Shown here piece by piece: positions 4,642-48,354 of a DNA stretch of 64,000 bases. The notes under the pieces are model-generated. The model made no database searches. It was not told the origin of the DNA and saw only the letters and a program-made list of their open reading frames with translations. The stretch covers positions 51,488 to 115,487 of the forward strand of contig CALXLG010000003.1 in assembly GCA_944389135.1 (NCBI GenBank), in the 5' to 3' direction. This DNA is from an uncultured Alphaproteobacteria bacterium. GTDB lineage: Bacteria; Pseudomonadota; Alphaproteobacteria; Rs-D84. The first letter of the stretch is position 1; each line of letters starts with the position of its first letter. The position numbers were made by a program, and so were the translations under genes.

Positions 4642-4719
4642 TGGGGCGGATGACCGGATTCGAACCGGCGACATTTGGTACCACAAACCAACGCTCTAAC
4701 CAGCTGAGCTACATCCGCC
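4642..4719 (-). tRNA. tRNA-His (anticodon GTG) with encoded G-1 and CCA
   Basis: The minus strand reads G-GCGGATG-TA-GCTC-AGCTGGTTA-GAGC-G-TTGGT-TTGTGGT-ACCAA-ATGTC-GCCGG-TTCGAAT-CCGGT-CATCCGC-C-CCA, a full cloverleaf with a G-1:C73 pair. Confidence 0.93.
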
Positions 4720-4734
4720 ATACTCAATTCTTCT

Positions 4735-4810
4735 TGGTGGAGCTGATCAGACTCGAACTGACGACCCCTTGCATGCCATGCAAGTGCTCTACCAACTGAG
4801 CTACAACCCC
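4735..4810 (-). tRNA. tRNA-Ala (anticodon GGC)
   Basis: The minus strand reads GGGGTTG-TA-GCTC-AGTTGGTA-GAGC-A-CTTGC-ATGGCAT-GCAAG-GGGTC-GTCAG-TTCGAGT-CTGAT-CAGCTCC-A-CCA. A G3:U70 pair is present. Confidence 0.93.
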
Positions 4811-12641: not shown

Positions 12642-12699
12642 ATTATAAAAGTTTATACATTTCTCTTTACAATTAAGATTAAGAATTCTAGAATACGAA

Positions 12700-12920
12700 T
12701 GGATTTCAATAGGGATTGAAGTTCGGGACTTAGAAACTCCCTGAATTTATGTCCGATGCGAAAGCATCGTTATCTTTGAAATGATGCTCTCGCATCGTTA
12801 AACCCGCACAAATGGTCGGGAAGCCGTTGGTTATACAACAGGGCTTATCCGAAGACCAATCGGGGTCATCTGACATAAATGACGTTTCTAACTTCCCGAC
12901 CGCCAAATTTATGGGCGGTT
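12700..12920 (-). ncRNA. Candidate structured RNA element, copy 1 (homologous to 45994-46165)
   Basis: It lies in a 410-nt intergenic gap. Its nested helices, in plus coordinates, are 12899-12904/12914-12919, 12814-12823/12892-12901, 12824-12831/12855-12863 and 12865-12869/12879-12883. The loop motif CCTGTTGTATA is shared with copy 2. Confidence 0.45.
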
Positions 12921-13052
12921 CTTCTTTACCTTTGTTTTCTGAAAATAACCCTAAGTGGTGGATGCGTACGTCATATAACGAAAGCGTATGGAATTGGGAA
13001 AAAGTATTCTGATTGTTTGAACATCCACCACCAAAAAACATAAGGTGAAAAA

Positions 13053-14144
13053 ATGCCAAAAGTATCTATAATTGTTCCTTGTTATAACGTATCACCATAT
13101 CTGGAAAGATGCCTTGACAGCCTTATCCAACAAAATTTAAAAGATATAGAAATAATTTGCATTGATGATAAATCAACGGATAACACTTTAAAAATTTTGC
13201 ATAAATATGCAAAAATAGATTCAAGAATAAAACTTATAGAATTTGAAAAGAACACAGGTGTTGCAATTGCTAGAAATTCAGGTCTTAGAATTGCAAAAGG
13301 TGAATATATCGGTTTTGTTGACCCAGATGATTATGTTGATTTAGATTTTTATGAAAAGTTATATAATGTTGCGAAATCTAGTAAGGCTGACTTTATAAAA
13401 GGTAATGTAATTTCTGTAAACAATAATACCAAAGACATTTCTATAGACAAAAAAATGGAAAATATAGAAAAGCATATCTCTAATTTTTCTAGCGCATTTT
13501 GGTCTGCTATATATAGAAAAGATTTTTTAGAAAAAAATAAAATTCTTTTTCCCCCGGATATAATAACATCTCAAGACGCTGTTTTTTTAGCCCAAGTCGG
13601 ATTAAAGGCAAAAAAAATTAAACTGGTTTACGATACTTATTATCACTATTTCTATCAAAGACCCGGTTCTTTAGATTCTCAATTCTTGCCTCATGAAAAA
13701 GCGGAATCTAAATATAAAGCATTCTGTATAAACATAAACCTAATAGAAAATTCAAAACTATCCGAAGACGATATGAAATTATTTATAGATACTCATGTCT
13801 TATCACATGTTATATATGAAATCTATAAAGACTTTGAATTAGACAGCGACAGAAAAAAGTTTTTTGATTTATTAGTAAATTTAAATAAAAAATATAATTT
13901 AAAGAGATTCTTAACATTACGTTTAGGTAAAAGAAAGTTCAAAAACGTTTTGTATAATGATTATACTAATTTTAGTTTAGCAAAAAAATCTAGAATTTAT
14001 TTATTTGATTTTATACCAATAATTTTAATAAAAACAATTGGATACAACAAAGAAATTAAATTATTTGATTTCTTACCTATATTGAAAATTTCTTATAACA
14101 AAGTATTTTTATTCAATTTTATTTTAATTCTTAAAATAAGGTAA
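13053..14144 (+). CDS. Family-2 glycosyltransferase
   Basis: The N-terminus VSIIVPCYNVSPYLERCLDSLIQQ...ICIDDKSTD...FVDPDD is a typical GT2 (GT-A) signature. The coding sequence is very AT-rich. Confidence 0.8.
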   Translation: MPKVSIIVPCYNVSPYLERCLDSLIQQNLKDIEIICIDDKSTDNTLKILHKYAKIDSRIKLIEFEKNTGVAIARNSGLRIAKGEYIGFVDPDDYVDLDFYEKLYNVAKSSKADFIKGNVISVNNNTKDISIDKKMENIEKHISNFSSAFWSAIYRKDFLEKNKILFPPDIITSQDAVFLAQVGLKAKKIKLVYDTYYHYFYQRPGSLDSQFLPHEKAESKYKAFCININLIENSKLSEDDMKLFIDTHVLSHVIYEIYKDFELDSDRKKFFDLLVNLNKKYNLKRFLTLRLGKRKFKNVLYNDYTNFSLAKKSRIYLFDFIPIILIKTIGYNKEIKLFDFLPILKISYNKVFLFNFILILKIR

Positions 14145-14148
14145 AAAC

Positions 14149-15594
14149 ATGAAAAGAAAATATGACTATATAATATCTTTAGGTGAAAAATGTTTTATTG
14201 CGCAAACACTACATTTTATAGGAGCTAGAAAATTCTCGTCACCTTTTGATTGGGTTGGAATACATGAATTTACCAAAAACTCCTGCGTTGTTGGCAGAAT
14301 AAATTTAATATTAAATAATTTTAAGAACTTTTTTGATAAAAAAGAAGATTTTATACCACTTTATAATGGAGAATCGTATTTTTTTGTAAATAAAAACACA
14401 GGATTCGCCTTTAGACATGAATTTGTTGACCTTGATGATTTTGATAAAAATTTTGACCTTATAAAAGAAAAGTATGACAGAAGATGTAAAAGATTAATTG
14501 AGATACTTCAATCTAATAAAAAAATTTTATTTGTTTATTCCAGCAGTCTTTTCCCCATAAACGATAAAAAACAAGTAATAGAAGCAATTAATTTATTAAA
14601 CAAAAAATTTAATACAAATAAAATTGATTTATTGATAGTTGAAAGTAACAAAAATTTAAATAGACAAAACAACATTAAATATAAAAAGATAAACTCTAAT
14701 ATAATTTGGGTATCTGGTGTAGATTTATATAAACCAGTTTCAAACAAATCACCAGAATATTATATTAAAACCTTATCTAAAATTATAAAAACAAAGGCAG
14801 AAATTAAACCGGACAATGTTCAAACAATAATATCTTTAACAAGTTTCCCCGCCCGAATAAATAATATTCATATAGTTATAAAATCTTTGTTAAAGCAATC
14901 TGTAAAACCAGATAAAATTGTTCTTTACTTATCAGAACAAGAATTTCCTAAAAAAGAAATTCCTACTAATTTACAAAATCTTATCGGACCTATATTTGAA
15001 GTTAAATTTGTAAAAGAAAACTATAAATCATATAATAAACTAATTTATGCAATTAAAGACTTTCCAAATTCAAATATAGTAACTGTGGACGATGATATTT
15101 TATATCCTAAAAATTTATTATCAACTTTATTAAAAGAGCATAAAAAAAATCCAAAAACTATTTGCGCCCACAGAATAAGGAAAATAAATATACAAAATGA
15201 AGTTATAATGCCTTATAGAACATGGAAACTATTCGAAAAAAGAAGTCTTGTTTCAAAACCACTTAAGCCCGACTTTAAAAATTTCTTCTGTGGCGTTGGT
15301 GGTGTTTTATATCCACCCAGGTCTTTACATCCAGATGTTTTAAACTGCGATAAATTTTTAAAATTATGTGCACACCAAGATGATGTTTGGTTCTGGGCTA
15401 TGGCAGTAAAAAACAACTATAAAATATCTGTAACCCGTTTCGGATATAATCTTTTTAAACGAACGATACAATCTTTACAAGAGGTTGGTTTATGGAATAC
15501 AATAAATAGTAATAATACAGAAAGCCCCAATAATAAAGCAATAGAAGCAGTATTAAAAGAATACCCTGAAATAAGAAAGAAAATAGTGGCATAA
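14149..15594 (+). CDS. Two-domain protein: N-terminal DUF1796-like (papain-fold-like) domain plus a C-terminal glycosyltransferase-like domain
   Basis: The N-terminus ISLGEKCFIAQTLHFIGARKFSSPFDWV resembles DUF1796. The C-terminal half contains VTVDDDILYP (a DxD-type motif). The coding sequence is very AT-rich. Confidence 0.5.
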   Translation: MKRKYDYIISLGEKCFIAQTLHFIGARKFSSPFDWVGIHEFTKNSCVVGRINLILNNFKNFFDKKEDFIPLYNGESYFFVNKNTGFAFRHEFVDLDDFDKNFDLIKEKYDRRCKRLIEILQSNKKILFVYSSSLFPINDKKQVIEAINLLNKKFNTNKIDLLIVESNKNLNRQNNIKYKKINSNIIWVSGVDLYKPVSNKSPEYYIKTLSKIIKTKAEIKPDNVQTIISLTSFPARINNIHIVIKSLLKQSVKPDKIVLYLSEQEFPKKEIPTNLQNLIGPIFEVKFVKENYKSYNKLIYAIKDFPNSNIVTVDDDILYPKNLLSTLLKEHKKNPKTICAHRIRKINIQNEVIMPYRTWKLFEKRSLVSKPLKPDFKNFFCGVGGVLYPPRSLHPDVLNCDKFLKLCAHQDDVWFWAMAVKNNYKISVTRFGYNLFKRTIQSLQEVGLWNTINSNNTESPNNKAIEAVLKEYPEIRKKIVA

Positions 15595-29443: not shown

Positions 29444-29602
29444 CTGACGCCGACCTTTATTTTTGAAAAATAAAAAGCCGCACAAAATGTGCGGCTTAAA
29501 AAAAATCCGTAAAACTTTACGGACACAATCTTTACTGTTTATGTTTTATATAATATCATATTTTACATATTAAGTCAAGTTTTTTATTTTGTTAGTGGCT
29601 TT

Positions 29603-30674: not shown

Positions 30675-30760
30675 AAGTCTAAGATTAATAAAAAATATTT
30701 AATTGTCCATAAAAAAAGCCACGACCAAATGCCGTGGCCCTGTATCCAAAACAACAAGAT

Positions 30761-31006
30761 TTATTCACGACCTTGGTTCTGTGGTTCTATAAACTTAGTA
30801 AAATCTTGTATGCTTGCACCCGTAGAAGACAATATCTTTGAAATACTGTTTGTTGACGGCCATCTTGGCTGCCCTTCCTTTGACCAACGTTTGCTTTTAT
30901 TAAACGTTGTTGGATCCAATCCACTACATTTTGCTAATCCGGAACAAGACATTCCGTGTTCTGTTGCAAAGCGTTCTATTGCCCGCCATACATCTTCATG
31001 GGTCAT
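30761..31006 (-). CDS. Small HTH DNA-binding protein (phage-repressor-like N-terminal domain family)
   Basis: The sequence WRAIERFATEHGMSCSGLAKCSGLDPTTFNKSKRWSKEGQPRWPSTNSISKIL is a family pattern conserved in alphaproteobacteria. Confidence 0.65.
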   Translation of the reverse strand: MTHEDVWRAIERFATEHGMSCSGLAKCSGLDPTTFNKSKRWSKEGQPRWPSTNSISKILSSTGASIQDFTKFIEPQNQGRE

Positions 31007-43009: not shown

Positions 43010-43087
43010 GGGGTTGTAGCTCAGCTGGTTTAGAGCGTCTGCCTGTCACGCAGAAGGTCGCGGGTTCGAGCCCCGTCAATCCCGCCA
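43010..43087 (+). tRNA. tRNA-Asp (anticodon GTC)
   Basis: The sequence is GGGGTTG-TA-GCTC...TCTGC-CTGTCAC-GCAGA-AGGTC-GCGGG-TTCGAGC-CCCGT-CAATCCC-G-CCA. Confidence 0.9.
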
Positions 43088-43955: not shown

Positions 43956-44031
43956 GGCCCCATCGTCTAGAGGCCTAGGACACCGCCCTTTCAAGGCGAG
44001 AACACCAGTTCGAATCTGGTTGGGGCTGCCA
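43956..44031 (+). tRNA. tRNA-Glu (anticodon TTC)
   Basis: The sequence is GGCCCCA-TC-GTCT-AGAGGCCTA-GGAC...CCTTTCAAGG...CCAG-TTCGAAT-CTGG-TGGGGCT-G-CCA. A terminator follows at 44038-44064. Confidence 0.9.
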
Positions 44032-45600: not shown

Positions 45601-45969
45601 TTATATACATTTATCAACCGCATACATTGATACACCATCAATAACCGGTTCTTTAACAATAATTCTATAACCCGTTGTGTCCTTGCCACATTCGTCTTTA
45701 ACAATATTTACATAAATATGTTCTTTATCTTCTCTTACATATTCCGAAAAATTCTTTTCACCAAAATCCCCCTCTATAAACATCACATTAGGTGTTTCAC
45801 TTTGAATAACTTCTAATTCGGAAACAATCGGGCATCTTACCAAAGAAGACATTTCACCGTCTGCAACCCATTCACATTCAACGCCAAAGACATCTACTAT
45901 TTTTGTGTTTTCCCCATTACATGCAGCAGATATTAAAATAACAGGTATAACCAATAATAATTTTTTCAT
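45601..45969 (-). CDS. Lipoprotein of unknown function
   Basis: It has a lipobox (LISAAC), is 122 aa, and is followed by a terminator at about 45572-45597. Confidence 0.55.
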   Translation of the reverse strand: MKKLLLVIPVILISAACNGENTKIVDVFGVECEWVADGEMSSLVRCPIVSELEVIQSETPNVMFIEGDFGEKNFSEYVREDKEHIYVNIVKDECGKDTTGYRIIVKEPVIDGVSMYAVDKCI

Positions 45970-45993
45970 ATTTTCTCCTTTATTATAAAAATA

Positions 45994-46165
45994 ACCGCAA
46001 AATTATGCGGTCAGGGAGTTCAAAAATCATATAGGTCAATGACTCTGCTACTTTCGGAATATTCCTGTTGTATAGTAGACAGCTCCCCGACCATAGCCAG
46101 GGATATAACGATGCTTGCGCACCGGACCTATTGGGCTTTTAAAACACCCGAACCAAGAAACCTTA
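45994..46165 (+). ncRNA. Candidate structured RNA element, copy 2 (homologous to 12700-12920 minus strand)
   Basis: Its helices are 45994-45999/46006-46011, 46009-46018/46083-46092 and 46045-46051/46075-46082. It shares CCTGTTGTATA (46064-46074), ATAACGATGC, CCGGAC and CCCGAAC blocks with copy 1. Confidence 0.45.
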
Positions 46166-46240
46166 AGTTCAATATAAACTATATCAATTTTTTACGTTTT
46201 TGGCAAAACTTTTTAACAAACCGCCCATTTGGGCGGTTAT

Positions 46241-48013
46241 TTATATCAACTTTGCTTCTTTTAGTAATTCTTCTAAATACGTTCCTTTTACTTTTTTCAT
46301 TCCTTGCTTTTCTAACAACTTTAATACCCACGGCACATCTACATCCTTTAATTTCTTCCCGTCGTTCAAGTAATAAATACTTTGCAACAACATACGAACA
46401 TCAAAGCATGAATCAAACACTTCTGGTACACCCCGTTCTATACCCAATAAAGTATAAACCGCTTCCATCGCCGTTCTAACAGAGTACTCCGTAGTAAACA
46501 CTGTATCTCTTTCTGTTTCTGCATAATTACCTATAAACGCAAGATTTACAGAACCAGTTGGTACAACCATTGGTCTGTCCCCCAGCGCACGTGGCATAAA
46601 GTATGTCGTTATATATGGCATATGGCTTGGCACAGTATTTGCACCGTTATGTGCAATATCTTCTATATCTTTTTCTGGAACGCCGATATGATATAACCAT
46701 TCTGCACAAAGTTCTGCCCCAGTACAATCTGCTATCTTTTTCTTTACATAATTACCTTCGGTATCTGATAACAAACCGTACGTCCATACTATTATTTCAT
46801 TTGGTTTCTGACTGCGAAAATGTGGCTGACGTGAAATACTGAACCCATACAACCAATTAGAATCTTTTATCGTCACTGGACCACTACTTACAATAGAACC
46901 GCTGTGTGGATTTTTCTTACATATCTTTTCTATATAAGGTACAACCCTATCATCCGTAAGTGTAATAGTTGCAGACATCACCCAATTGGCATCTGGTATA
47001 TTTTCGCAGAATTTTTCTGGACGACCAAACTCTTTGTTTTGCTTTGCTATATTCTTCCACAATTCCCAACTGCCACCAAGTTCATGATGTGTATCTGCTG
47101 GTGTATCGTTATCACCGTATGTCGTACTTTCTGTAATAGACCCATTAGTTACAAAAACTAAATCATCAGGCGTCAAGCTAATCTCTTTACTGCGCCCAGA
47201 TTTTATCATCTCTATTTTCTTTGCAACCTTCTTTTTGGTTTTGCAATCAACTACTACGTTCGTTATACGTGCATCAAAATGGAACTTTACGTTATTTTTT
47301 TCTAACCAACGTACAAGTGGCGTAATTAAAGACTCATACTGATTATATCTTGTGAACTTTAATGCGGACATATCGGCCAGCTTCCCGACATGGTGTATAA
47401 AGCGCAATATATAACGACGCATTTCCATCGCACTGGACCACTTTTCAAACGCAAACATTGTTGCCCAGTATAACCAGAAATTAGATTCAAAGAATTCTTC
47501 TGTAAAGACTTGGTCTATTTGAACATCTTGTAATTTTTCTTCGGGCGTTAAAGCTAAATCTATTAATTCTTTAATTGCCTTTGGTGTCAAAGTTAATTTA
47601 CCGTCATCTTTCATTCGCTTGCCACGCTTTTCAATGGCACGACAATGAGAAAAACTTGGGTCGTCTTTATTCAACCAATAAAACTCATCCAAGACAGAAA
47701 CACTTTCGTCTTCTAAAGAAGGTATAGAACGAAATAAATCCCACAGCGTTTCAAAATGCGCTTCCATTTCGCGACCACCACGAATTATATAACCACGTTG
47801 CGGGTTTAATATACCGTCCATACTGCCACCTGCCAATGACAGCTCTTCAAAAATATGAATTTTATTACCCTTCATCTTACCATCACGAATTAAAAAAACA
47901 GCTGCTGCCAACCCAGCCAAACCACCACCTATTATGTATGCAGATTTTTTCTCTACACCTGCTGGTTTACGAGGATTTGCAAACGCTTCATAATTTCCGT
48001 TGCTGTGATACAT
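46241..48013 (-). CDS. ohyA: Oleate hydratase (MCRA family, FAD-dependent)
   Basis: 590 aa. The N-terminus is [16 protein letters not shown], the FAD motif is [16 protein letters not shown], and the family length fits. Confidence 0.85.

Positions 48014-48269: not shown

Positions 48270-48354
<85 letters not shown>

Follow-up and report, generated by a model that had tools for sequence, protein, structure and literature searches.

Two diverged sRNA-Xcc1-type elements in a gut Rs-D84 alphaproteobacterium: candidate attenuating leaders with locus-specific long-range pairings

The 64-kb stretch of Rs-D84 DNA that was analysed, here called the window, carries two diverged intergenic copies of an element that, by sequence and predicted structure, are clear if divergent relatives of sRNA-Xcc1 (RF02221). 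In the branch of the family to which the window belongs, the element is most likely a transcription-attenuating leader. We place at about 0.55 the probability that each copy forms part of a self-contained leader transcription unit, which would choose between folds and in this way set the level of readthrough into the gene behind it.

When 12700-12920 (−) and 45994-46165 (+) were aligned globally, 127 of 171 ungapped columns were identical. A sequence-only reading of the window, which had described two diverged intergenic copies, quoted strings that are all present where it placed them on the strands it read. The similarity it saw is real, and its by-eye estimate of ~60-65% identity is replaced by 74% of ungapped columns, or ~57% of the longer sequence. 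Within the 64 kb there are exactly two occurrences of the core motif TATACAACAGGnnTwTyCCGAA, against 0.02 expected from shuffles. A covariance model built solely from Rs-D84-type homologues of the window's branch located elsewhere (R1) gave two family matches in the window, copy 2 at 112.9 bits (E = 5e-28) and copy 1 at 96.5 bits (E = 1e-23). Two further R1 matches, the next-best at 29454-29569 (25.9 bits) and one at 30695-30774, were rejected as third copies because in each the terminator hairpin alone aligns. Each copy is a predicted structured RNA of ~230-250 nt, copy 1 probably extending from ~12697 to ~12927 (+) and copy 2 from ~46170 to ~45985 (−).

Both copies match the RF02221 model from position 1 to position 87 of 87: copy 1 at 12814-12909 (+) with 37.1 bits (E = 9e-5 per 801 nt), and copy 2 at 46002-46091 (−) with 39.7 bits (E = 2e-5 per 801 nt). 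The gathering score of this family is 53 bits, and a default Rfam scan of the window is blank because both copies fall below it; at that score there was likewise no RF02221 match among 18 related loci. The sequence-only reading had placed the element in no known RNA family and had proposed the Rfam scan. The scan at its default setting bears this out, and the sub-threshold, full-length matches overturn it. Because the RF02221 match explains both copies, an outcome which that reading had itself named as speaking against novelty, the claim of a new family shrinks, on present comparisons, to one of a divergent branch or new variant of sRNA-Xcc1. A transitive Rfam link through GC-richer relatives was abandoned, since 0 of 18 related loci reached the gathering score, and reciprocal model matches were used instead. 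R1 detects bona fide RF02221 loci at 24-46 bits, scoring 46.2 (L240), 45.0 (L132), 33.9 (L242) and 24.2 bits (L241) at the RF02221 positions; in L239 its match (28.6 bits, 1707-1815) lies downstream of the RF02221 match at 1485-1570. The RF02221 model scores bona fide loci at 56-75 bits, the five named here at 56-73 bits, and L132 is found by both models.

The features shared with sRNA-Xcc1 include a closing helix around two hairpins, a loop composed of AUACAA(y)A, a 3-bp mini-hairpin and GAA, the matched strand, a position directly upstream of a gene, and an upstream complementarity to two variable segments, x and y. The ~20-nt P2 loop hardly changes between Proteobacteria and Rs-D84. The window's branch differs in its low-GC host lineage (Rs-D84), in the make-up of its 5′ domain (H1 with a GGGA loop, H2, and H3 of the form CGGUGC...GCAUCG), in the presence of strand A, and in carrying a separate canonical terminator hairpin. 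It also shows no repeat of the address where ribosomes would bind, has multiplied to about one copy in every 30-60 kb, and precedes glycosyltransferase, lipoprotein and many other genes, not those for KilA-N, Bro-N, ORF6N or SymE proteins.

The evidence points to the plus strand as the RNA strand of copy 1 and the minus strand as that of copy 2, since predicted promoters, predicted terminators and G·U counts all agree. Among 74 homologues, a −10 box (TAnAAT), often with a −35 element (TTGnnn), is aligned ~8 nt upstream of H1, and the promoter class is predicted to be sigma-70-like. The predicted terminator helix covaries family-wide, with two-sided changes in 5 of 6 pairs; that of copy 1 shares 3 nt with the 3′ strand of P1, and its 9-nt loop made it invisible to a simple terminator scanner with a loop limit of 8. 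These assignments reverse the sequence-only reading, which had copy 1 of its new RNA family read from the minus strand and copy 2 from the plus strand, with the ACCGCC hairpin first. Its error is understandable, as Watson-Crick helices are identical on both strands and a comparison of two copies is blind to strand. On the opposite strand, its 5′ hairpin is followed by a U-run and is therefore best read as an intrinsic terminator, its "downstream blocks" turn out to be the 5′ domain of the RNA, and the overlap it noticed between the first hairpin and the closing helix corresponds to the 2-3 nt that the 3′ strand of P1 shares with the terminator. The family alignment of 74 homologues contains ~168 G·U cells that would become A·C mismatches on the strand it chose, and the promoters, the RF02221 and R1 matches and the downstream genes all lie on the other one. 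We give that version next to no chance. The features of both copies are collected in Table 1.

Table 1. Predicted features of the two elements and the genes that follow them
Feature	Coordinates	Strand	Remarks
Copy 1 promoter-like site	12666-12694	+	TTTACA, 17-nt spacer, TAGAAT; consensus scan 10/12
Copy 1 predicted start	~12697-12702	+	from promoter-like site
Copy 1 H1 hairpin	12702-12723	+	GAUUUCAAU-AGGGA-UUGAAGUU, GGGA loop
Copy 1 H2 hairpin	12725-12741	+	loop contains address site x
Copy 1 address site x	12730-12737	+	UUAGAAAC, in H2 loop
Copy 1 address site y	12746-12753	+	UUUAUGUC, complement of P3 loop
Copy 1 H3	12754-12769	+	CGAUGC-GAAA-GCAUCG, GUUA next
Copy 1 H3′ (duplicate of H3)	12783-12796	+	GUUA next
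Copy 1 strand A	12803-12809	+	CCCGCAC; putative alternative helix with P1 5′ strand, one bulged C
Copy 1 sRNA-Xcc1-like three-way junction	12814-12901	+	RF02221 match, R1 96.5 bits, covariation
Copy 1 P1	12814-12823 / 12892-12901	+	
Copy 1 P2	12824-12831 / 12855-12863	+	
Copy 1 conserved loop	12832-12853	+	UAUACAACAGGGCUUAUCCGAA
Copy 1 P3	12865-12883	+	y′ GACAUAAA at 12872-12879
Copy 1 x′	12884-12891	+	GUUUCUAA
Copy 1 intrinsic terminator	12899-12927	+	ACCGCC-AAAUUUAUG-GGCGGU then UCUUCUUU
Gene after copy 1: family-2 glycosyltransferase	13053-14144	+	Pfam PF00535, E 1e-39; 125 nt past U-run
Copy 2 promoter-like site	46178-46206	−	TTGCCA, 17-nt spacer, (TG)TATAGT; 10/12, extended −10 TG
Copy 2 predicted start	~46170	−	from promoter-like site
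Copy 2 5′ domain	46096-46170	−	H1, H2, H3, strand A
Copy 2 H1 (degenerate)	46150-46170	−	
Copy 2 H2	46133-46149	−	x UAAAA at 46137-46141
Copy 2 address site y	46125-46131	−	AUAGGUC
Copy 2 H3	46109-46124	−	CGGUGC-GCAA-GCAUCG
Copy 2 strand A	46096-46102	−	CCCUGGC
Copy 2 sRNA-Xcc1-like three-way junction	46009-46092	−	RF02221 match, R1 112.9 bits
Copy 2 P1	46083-46092 / 46009-46018	−	
Copy 2 P2	46075-46082 / 46045-46051	−	
Copy 2 conserved loop	46053-46074	−	
Copy 2 P3	46026-46043	−	y′ GACCUAU at 46031-46037
Copy 2 x′	~46021-46025	−	UUUUG
Copy 2 intrinsic terminator	45985-46013	−	UGACCGCA-UAAUUU-UGCGGUUA then UUUUUAU; scan: 8 pairs + T-run
Gene after copy 2: 122-aa protein	45601-45969	−	signal peptide, lipobox-like N-terminus (MKKLLLVIPVILISAAC...)

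The search for homologues that the sequence-only reading had proposed yielded more than 100 further loci in gut Rs-D84 / Ca. Enterousia alphaproteobacteria, with several per genome. Its central observation, that helices are kept by compensatory substitutions, held when 74 non-redundant homologues and 27 nested pairs were used for the covariance model and covariation analysis it had also suggested. The cells of these pairs were 96.7% paired, as opposed to 38-47% when partners were slid by 1-3 columns, and both sides had changed in 146 cells compared with 13-41 in the slid controls; none of 500 shuffles equalled any observed covariation measure. H1 showed compensatory changes at 8 of its 9 predicted pairs. 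H3 is present twice in copy 1 and in many homologues, and once in copy 2.

Comparison across loci shows that two hypervariable segments of the 3′ domain, one in the P3 loop (y′) and one in the junction that follows P3 (x′), have predicted pairing partners ~85-100 nt upstream. For y:y′, an exact complement of 7-10 nt occurs at a fixed position in 85 of 100 loci, and its mean length is 8.2 nt within a locus and 5.3 nt between mismatched loci. In most homologues the x:x′ complement lies ~10 nt to the 5′ side of y, with corresponding means of 6.6 and 5.3 nt. The address sequences vary among paralogues and also among syntenic orthologues of copy 1. This putative long-range pairing is newly described here and lies outside the Rfam RF02221 model. 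The edges of the helices, which might have distinguished RNA-RNA from RNA-DNA pairing by G·U versus A·C, end abruptly with no excess of G·U and were uninformative in this respect.

The analysis further shows that two predicted helices, A:B and P1 (B:C), are mutually exclusive and that both covary. Position 7 of GUCGGGN pairs in standard fashion with its partner in A in 51 of 60 cases, by five pair types, and P1 has two-sided changes at 3 pairs. Strand A of copy 1 was spotted by eye, with one bulged C, and had been missed by the scripted pattern. In nested folding, the combination of long-range helix, A:B and full terminator is favoured: P1 is found in 0 of 71 minimum-free-energy folds, and forcing it costs ~14 kcal/mol on average in this comparison, which leaves out pseudoknots. 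The minimum-free-energy fold of copy 2 includes the y:y′ helix, the A:B hairpin and the full terminator. In the consensus fold, P1 (7 pairs) and the terminator (6 pairs) are compatible side by side, and formation of P1 therefore need not weaken the terminator. We also considered pairing of a third segment, z (GUUCGGGG), with the 3′ strand of P1. The complementarity is conserved, and 92 of 2000 shuffles were as good, so that covariation is non-significant in this test, which used a MAFFT alignment with one subgroup misaligned; z pairing is retained as a possibility. A kissing interaction between the GGGA loop of H1 and the terminator loop, which reads UCC in 37 of 74 homologues, was rejected as weak (own 3.7, other 3.1) and is absent from both window copies.

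The element is tightly linked to the gene downstream, in a predicted layout of promoter, leader, terminator and gene. A same-strand Shine-Dalgarno sequence and ORF start lie at most 40 nt after the U-run at 83 of 93 distinct loci (89%), at a median distance of 21.5 nt. Copy 2 fits this pattern, with AAGGAG 7 nt before an ATG that is located 15 nt past the U-run; its 122-aa product has no Pfam match. In copy 1, as in its orthologues, the gene is 125-134 nt away. The copy 1 locus is syntenic with L060 and L029, three species in all. Genes neighbouring the elements in the window encode the GT2 protein, an MCRA oleate hydratase, the 122-aa protein and a protein of 260 aa that likewise matches nothing in Pfam. 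Across loci the downstream genes are very diverse and give no obvious common signal. By a crude heuristic, 32% of downstream proteins have a signal peptide versus 16% of all ORFs, which is suggestive. Modules of ~290 bp that are 94-99% identical occur in unrelated contexts in nine species; their homology ends sharply against unrelated flanks, at positions that vary by tens of bases. A phage origin was also considered and dropped: a BLAST search of the phage collection with a window copy found nothing, and among 120 viral loci retrieved by means of the short core pattern a single one was a true member.

A precedent for variable segments of this kind is found in phages. The c4 RNA of phage P1 is a leader-encoded antisense RNA with a1b1 and a2b2 sites, and the CI RNA of P4 provides a case of RNA-dependent termination. 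Accepted RF02221 members resemble c4 (phages P1/P7, RF01695) in several respects. The structured RNA is situated in the leader of the operon that is controlled, upstream of an antirepressor-type gene, and two short variable segments are complementary to an upstream site pair. In the RF02221 loci a second pair of sites, at the downstream gene's ribosome-binding site, is complementary to these segments as well. Upstream x and y were present in 6 of 6 accepted loci examined, and in 5 of the 6 the address was repeated downstream at the ribosome-binding site or start codon (for example, CCAAGCAGAGG in L241 and UCACAAAG+GAGG in L240) of genes for ORF6N, KilA-N, Bro-N or putative antirepressor proteins. 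The downstream site pair is present in these proteobacterial and phage relatives and absent from the window copies. In the window's branch, where 72 loci were compared, complements to the address in the vicinity of the ribosome-binding site averaged 4.9 nt both within a locus and between loci. Neither window copy has an address complement of at least 7 nt within ~90 nt downstream of the terminator, and no y′ complement was found over ~210 nt. A c4-type downstream target in the window's branch was accordingly rejected, with two tests giving no excess over mismatched loci. Because there is no such excess near the ribosome-binding site, a c4-type translational block cannot simply be transferred to this branch. 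c4-family models gave no match at E≤10 in either 801-nt window region and none at E≤0.01 in an Stx-type phage locus, and we regard c4 as analogous and not as a demonstrated homologue. Both the c4 motif and the c4-a1b1 motif of Weinberg et al. 2010 are listed in PMC2864571. IsrK is a related RNA, and in a Xylella prophage C4, IsrK and sRNA-Xcc1 lie side by side.

Taking these features together, our preferred reading is that of a fold-switching leader. A sigma-70-type promoter would be followed by a 5′ domain of ~110-120 nt (H1, H2, H3 and sometimes H3′), a ~90-nt junction homologous to sRNA-Xcc1 (RF02221), an intrinsic terminator and the gene. At the level of the family, the device would work like c4 of phage P1, with y′ and x′ pairing with the upstream y and x in their own transcript; in proteobacterial and phage members, a further copy of x-y covers the Shine-Dalgarno sequence or start codon of the KilA-N/Bro-N/ORF6N/antirepressor-type gene. 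In the window's branch, where the downstream repeat is missing, a terminator would separate the RNA from the gene and strand A would pair with the 5′ strand of P1. Fold I would consist of the long-range x-y:y′-x′ helix, the A:B hairpin and the full terminator, and fold II of the P1/P2/P3 junction, the balance between them setting transcription readthrough into the gene. A candidate trigger is the terminated RNA of the same locus, which would use its private address to act in trans, as P4 CI RNA does; another is a factor with affinity for the invariant UAUACAACAGG-loop-CCGAA element. We infer both that termination is the regulated step and what might trigger it.

The same layout is compatible with other devices. 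Terminator riboswitches and attenuators likewise have a promoter, a structured leader, an intrinsic terminator and a gene close behind, with competing helices that covary and many copies per genome before varied genes. In a classical riboswitch or protein-sensing attenuator, a ligand or protein would bind the three-way junction together with the invariant apical element of P2 (UAUACAACAGG-loop-CCGAA), and binding would stabilise P1 against A:B and alter termination, the long-range pairings serving as scaffolding. The order of parts at 83 of 93 loci, covariation of both exclusive helices (A:B and B:C) and a 20-nt loop almost unchanged between Proteobacteria and Rs-D84 would all suit such a sensor, as would many copies per genome before diverse genes, a pattern known for second-messenger riboswitches. 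We nevertheless consider this reading unlikely. The locus-specific, hypervariable long-range helices are unusual for ligand pockets, and the recurrence of the variable segments at the ribosome-binding site of true RF02221 loci points to an antisense logic and away from pure scaffolding. In addition, closing helix and terminator overlap by only 2-3 nt in the window's branch, P1 and the terminator are compatible, the downstream genes suggest no ligand, and no Rfam riboswitch matched the window copies in gathering or relaxed scans.

sRNA-Xcc1 itself has been published as a trans-acting sRNA, an 88-nt RNA of Xanthomonas campestris that ends at P1 and the U-run as defined by Northern blot and RACE (PMC2996969; also Chen et al. 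2011, going by its title as cited in PMC12189769). The mapped 5′ end in Xanthomonas is the first base of P1, which is at most a hint that the leader transcript might be processed by RNase P, as expected of a c4-type RNA. If the window copies were free-standing trans-acting sRNA genes of this sort, proximity to a gene would be incidental or a promoter/terminator effect. The published 88-nt RNA, the element's own promoter, an efficient-looking terminator and the ~290-bp modules, 94-99% identical in unrelated contexts in nine species, favour this explanation, which we nonetheless judge to be quite improbable. At 89% of loci the start codon follows the U-run so closely (median 21.5 nt) that there is no room for another promoter, the 88-nt part is preceded by the 5′ domain and the two address pairings, which are conserved, and RF02221 loci carry the address again at the neighbouring gene's ribosome-binding site. 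Function at the level of DNA, as a MITE-like mobile promoter, an integron-cassette site or an orphan IS110/IS1111 guide RNA whose complementarities recognise DNA, is less probable still, and we give it only a slight chance. It would draw on reports of sRNA-Xcc1 in integron cassettes, transposons, plasmids and phages, on the sharp homology ends of near-identical modules between unrelated flanks, and on address pairings that stop abruptly with no G·U excess at their edges. Yet neither copy adjoins a recombinase or transposase, module ends vary by tens of bases and on reading show no terminal repeats, copy 1 is syntenic in three species, and just one of the 120 viral loci that carry the pattern is a true member. 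Furthermore, the nested helices use ~168 G·U cells that are meaningful solely in RNA of the corrected strand. An IS110/IS1111 bridge or seek RNA, considered on account of the integron link, was rejected since no DEDD-type recombinase adjoins either copy.

The fold-switching leader also bears on how the family as a whole is understood. Annotation of sRNA-Xcc1 is routine in Xanthomonas, Xylella, Aeromonas, Haemophilus and Stx phages, and the RNA has been discussed in connection with virulence, yet we know of no mechanism for it. More tentatively than for the window's branch, and with the odds somewhat against it, sRNA-Xcc1-type RNAs may be two-domain, self-addressed leader riboregulators with a private x-y address, which were rewired to a terminator and amplified in Rs-D84. 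If so, they would not be simple 88-nt trans-acting sRNAs: the hypervariable two-part address of each locus would be read by its own RNA, and in phages and mobile elements that address would also lie across the ribosome-binding site of an antirepressor-type gene, as in c4. An address of this kind, which recurs both upstream and where ribosomes bind the adjacent antirepressor-type gene and which forms the hypervariable part of the RNA, provides a concrete, testable model for sRNA-Xcc1. In the reduced (<1 Mb) genomes of gut Rs-D84, rewired to a terminator and in an estimated 15-30 copies (a rough figure), the device would exert locus-specific control, possibly autoregulation, over ~2-3% of genes, many of them encoding envelope proteins, with a near-identical module reused before unrelated genes across species. 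It would be an unusually economical form of regulation if one leader design served dozens of genes in a genome of <1 Mb that has few regulators. For annotation, the Rfam RF02221 model covers just the 3′ third of the element, and more than 100 gut alphaproteobacterial loci, as well as both loci in the window, escape standard Rfam annotation. Finally, the occurrence of identical leader modules before different lipoprotein genes hints at a cassette-like exchange of surface genes.

The sequence-only reading had described two diverged intergenic copies of one element, and on reading the two stretches all the strings it quoted are present. Global alignment of 12700-12920 (minus strand) with 45994-46165 (plus strand) gives 127 identities in 171 ungapped columns (74%), and the core TATACAACAGGnnTwTyCCGAA is found at two places, no more, in the whole window, against 0.02 occurrences expected from shuffles; the resemblance is real and far beyond chance. 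The strand proposed for both copies has to be reversed. The hairpin that had been placed 5′ is an intrinsic terminator, because the U-run comes after it on the other strand. Sigma-70-like promoters precede both copies and align with a -10 box conserved across 74 homologues, about 168 G·U cells of the family alignment become A·C mismatches if read on the strand first proposed, and the genes downstream of the RNA share the strand of the matches to RF02221 (Rfam sRNA-Xcc1). These four independent lines agree with the strand of the RF02221 matches. What had been called downstream blocks is the conserved 5′ domain of the RNA read backwards, and the element is about twice the length first reported. 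At 46219-46238 a perfect 8-bp hairpin, AACCGCCC-AUUU-GGGCGGUU, separates the copy 2 promoter from the end of the gene for MCRA (oleate hydratase; 46241-48013, minus strand); it probably ends MCRA transcription and insulates the copy 2 leader.

Features of the two copies, other Rfam features of the window, and downstream repeats at accepted RF02221 loci
Feature	Position	Strand	Detail
Copy 1, RF02221 match	12814-12909	+	37.1 bits, E 9e-5, whole model
Copy 2, RF02221 match	46002-46091	-	39.7 bits, E 2e-5, whole model
Copy 1, sigma-70-like promoter	12666-12694	+	10/12
Copy 2, sigma-70-like promoter	46206-46178	-	10/12
Copy 1, y : y′			UUUAUGUC : GACAUAAA
Copy 1, x : x′			UUAGAAAC : GUUUCUAA
Copy 2, y : y′			AUAGGUC : GACCUAU
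Copy 2, x : x′			UAAAA : UUUUG
tRNA genes	4645-4718, 4738-4810, 48273-48354	-	Rfam gathering score
tRNA genes	43010-43084, 43956-44028	+	Rfam gathering score
L241 downstream repeat			CCAAGCAGAGG, directly before start
L240 downstream repeat			UUGAAC ... UCACAAAG + GAGG
L132 downstream repeat			UUCGAA ... UUGCGAG + G
L242 downstream repeat			UGAACAC, on ATG

At default thresholds the Rfam scan returned five tRNAs and nothing else in the window, and neither copy reaches the RF02221 gathering score of 53 bits. The sequence-only reading could not place the element in any RNA family; in an E-value-threshold scan both copies match RF02221 over its full length. Model R1, a covariance model built without any proteobacterial sequence from A2 (a MAFFT alignment of 74 non-redundant 3′ halves from the window's branch), detects the loci L240, L241, L242 and L132 at their RF02221 positions (24-46 bits), and at L239 gives a 28.6-bit match downstream of the RF02221 match. 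All five lie above the RF02221 gathering score (56-73 bits); a Stx-type phage locus, L243, scores 74.5 bits with RF02221. Because R1 finds loci that pass this score, the window elements form a divergent branch of RF02221, itself a mechanistically orphan family, and no separate family.

The RNAalifold consensus of A2 contains 27 pairs, in the closing helix P1, P2, a 3-bp stem inside the conserved loop, P3 and the terminator. Cells are paired in 96.7% of cases, compared with 38-47% with slid partners, and 0 of 500 shuffles reached any of the observed pairing measures. The proposal that helices are kept by compensatory substitutions is borne out across the 74 homologues (146 two-sided cells versus 13-41 in slid controls). 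That both loci are structured RNAs, with the strand reversed from the proposal, is strongly supported. The Xcc1-like part is preceded by a conserved 5′ domain consisting of hairpin H1 (GGGA loop), H2, a linker, H3 and strand A, right before P1, with covariation seen across the family in H1 and H2. H3 (CGGUGC-loop-GCAUCG, then GUUA) is duplicated in many homologues, copy 1 included. As GAUGC-loop-GCAUC followed by GUUA, it stands twice in tandem in copy 1 (12754-12769, 12783-12796) and once in copy 2, single and double forms both being common among homologues; since its stem sequence is conserved, the repeated hairpin might be bound by a protein. UCC is present in 37 of the 74 terminator loops of A2 (e.g. 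AAUUCC, AUCCC), in neither window copy, and can base-pair with the near-invariant GGGA(A/U) loop of H1 (alignment A3); complementarity between the two loops gives a weak signal (own 3.7 nt, other 3.1 nt).

Two long-range pairings join the domains. At 85 of 100 loci an exact 7-10-nt complement (y) to the P3 loop (y′) stands at a fixed place directly 5′ of H3, and the junction after P3 (x′) has a 6-8-nt complement (x) within the H2 loop, about 10 nt upstream of y. Within a locus the mean match is 8.2 nt (y) or 6.6 nt (x), versus 5.3 nt in each case with the 5′ domains of other loci. The address sequences vary among paralogues and among the syntenic orthologues of copy 1, with complementarity maintained.

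Strand A (consensus CCCUGAC) pairs with the P1 5′ strand, GUCGGGG, in an alternative helix, A:B. At the variable seventh position, 51 of 60 cases give a standard pair with the strand A partner (G:C 38, A:U 6, U:A 3, U:G 3, C:G 1), and this position covaries with the P1 3′ strand too, which argues that the mutually exclusive helices A:B and P1 are both under selection. In nested-only folding of 71 full-length leaders, which ignores pseudoknots, the long-range helix, A:B and the full terminator were favoured every time, and forcing P1 cost a mean of about 14 kcal/mol. An antiterminator role for P1 is therefore an inference: the folding omits pseudoknots, and the 7-bp P1 and the 6-bp terminator are compatible side by side in the consensus fold.

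A same-strand ORF with a Shine-Dalgarno motif begins within 40 nt of the U-run at 83 of 93 distinct loci (median 21.5 nt). Copy 2 fits this rule, its gene starting 15 nt past the U-run; in copy 1 and its orthologues the interval is 125-134 nt. The genes are very diverse, encoding among others glycosyltransferases, lipoproteins, secreted Cys-rich, membrane and nuclease-like proteins and one HTH protein, and by a crude test 32% of the products have hydrophobic N-terminal segments versus 16% of all ORFs. The copy 1 operon (13053-15594) encodes a GT2 glycosyltransferase, then a 481-aa protein joining a DUF1796 papain-like peptidase domain to a GT2 domain; GT2 genes also follow the leaders of L002, L014, L060, L070, L072, L084, L085 and L100.

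At accepted RF02221 loci, upstream x and y complements are present in 6 of 6 cases; in 5 of the 6 they reappear further down, covering the Shine-Dalgarno or start codon of the gene that follows. Genes bearing the downstream repeat code for an annotated antirepressor or for proteins of the ORF6N, KilA-N or Bro-N type. An address pair lying upstream and repeated at the downstream ribosome-binding site or start recalls phage P1 c4 RNA, with its a1b1 and a2b2 sites. Motifs for both c4 and c4-a1b1 are listed in PMC2864571. The likeness is one of mechanism, not membership, because no c4 model matches the regions of the window copies or the Stx-type phage locus. As further genes next to sRNA-Xcc1, the literature names symE (Xanthomonas cassettes) and one of ORF6N type (APSE phages); no description of the upstream-plus-RBS layout for this RNA was found in the literature searched, outside which Chen et al. 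2011 lies. At L240, L242, L132, L241 and L239 a conserved hairpin followed by 6-7 U (e.g. CCUACG-CCCGUCAGC-CGUAG-UUUUUUU-AUGCCC) lies between y and P1; it looks like an in-leader terminator and, in these proteobacterial and phage loci, recalls the RNA-dependent premature termination of P4.

In contrast to these loci, the window's branch has a canonical terminator where the downstream repeat would be, together with strand A, and downstream complements to x′ and y′ alike are not in excess (own 4.9 nt, other 4.9 nt). The best-supported reading is that its RNA is a leader that would pick one of two folds and so set the amount of readthrough. One candidate trigger is the terminated RNA of the same locus, which would work through its private address as P4 CI does; another is a factor binding the invariant P2 apical element. 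The analysis yields a proposed mechanism, open to testing, for the whole family. A few loci of this branch carry address-like complements by the start codon, about 18-29 nt past the terminator in L012 (AGCAAUC and AUCAAUG overlapping the ATG), at about +30 in L064 and at about +32-46 in L079, and may be intermediates between the c4-like and terminator layouts.

A pattern scan, one genome per species, found at least 118 loci, mostly in gut alphaproteobacterial MAGs labelled Candidatus Enterousia, "Rickettsiales" or uncultured Alphaproteobacteria; one genome frequently contributes several contigs among the matches listed. The order Rs-D84 includes these gut organisms, whose genomes are about 0.75-1.0 Mb (PMC12306168). 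Judged by sequence, the window is assigned to this group: L079 has an MCRA protein 85% identical to that of the window, and L060 and L029, where the RNA occupies the same place, have proteins sharing 73-74% identity with the one encoded upstream of copy 1. R1 finds exactly two copies in the window (112.9 and 96.5 bits) and, within the 8 kb flanking fetched loci, about 14 more; as a rough estimate, a density of about one copy per 30-60 kb gives 15-30 per genome of such size. Nine species-level genomes (L005, L017, L018, L033, L058, L074, L080, L103 and L106) share a promoter-to-terminator leader module that is about 290 bp long and 94-99% identical among them. It spans about -172 to +115/150 from the P1 start and carries one and the same hypervariable address. 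Homology ends sharply on both sides, and the downstream genes are unrelated, encoding mainly lipoprotein or signal-peptide proteins of 109-462 aa, which suggests either that genes are swapped, cassette-like, downstream of a conserved leader or that the module is mobile. Tandem copies about 220-390 nt apart on one strand occur in L111 (2537-2663 and 2927-3063, minus) and L239 (1485-1570 and 1707-1815, plus), recalling the five-copy array, with a spacing of about 381 nt, reported from a Xylella fastidiosa genomic island (PMC12189769).
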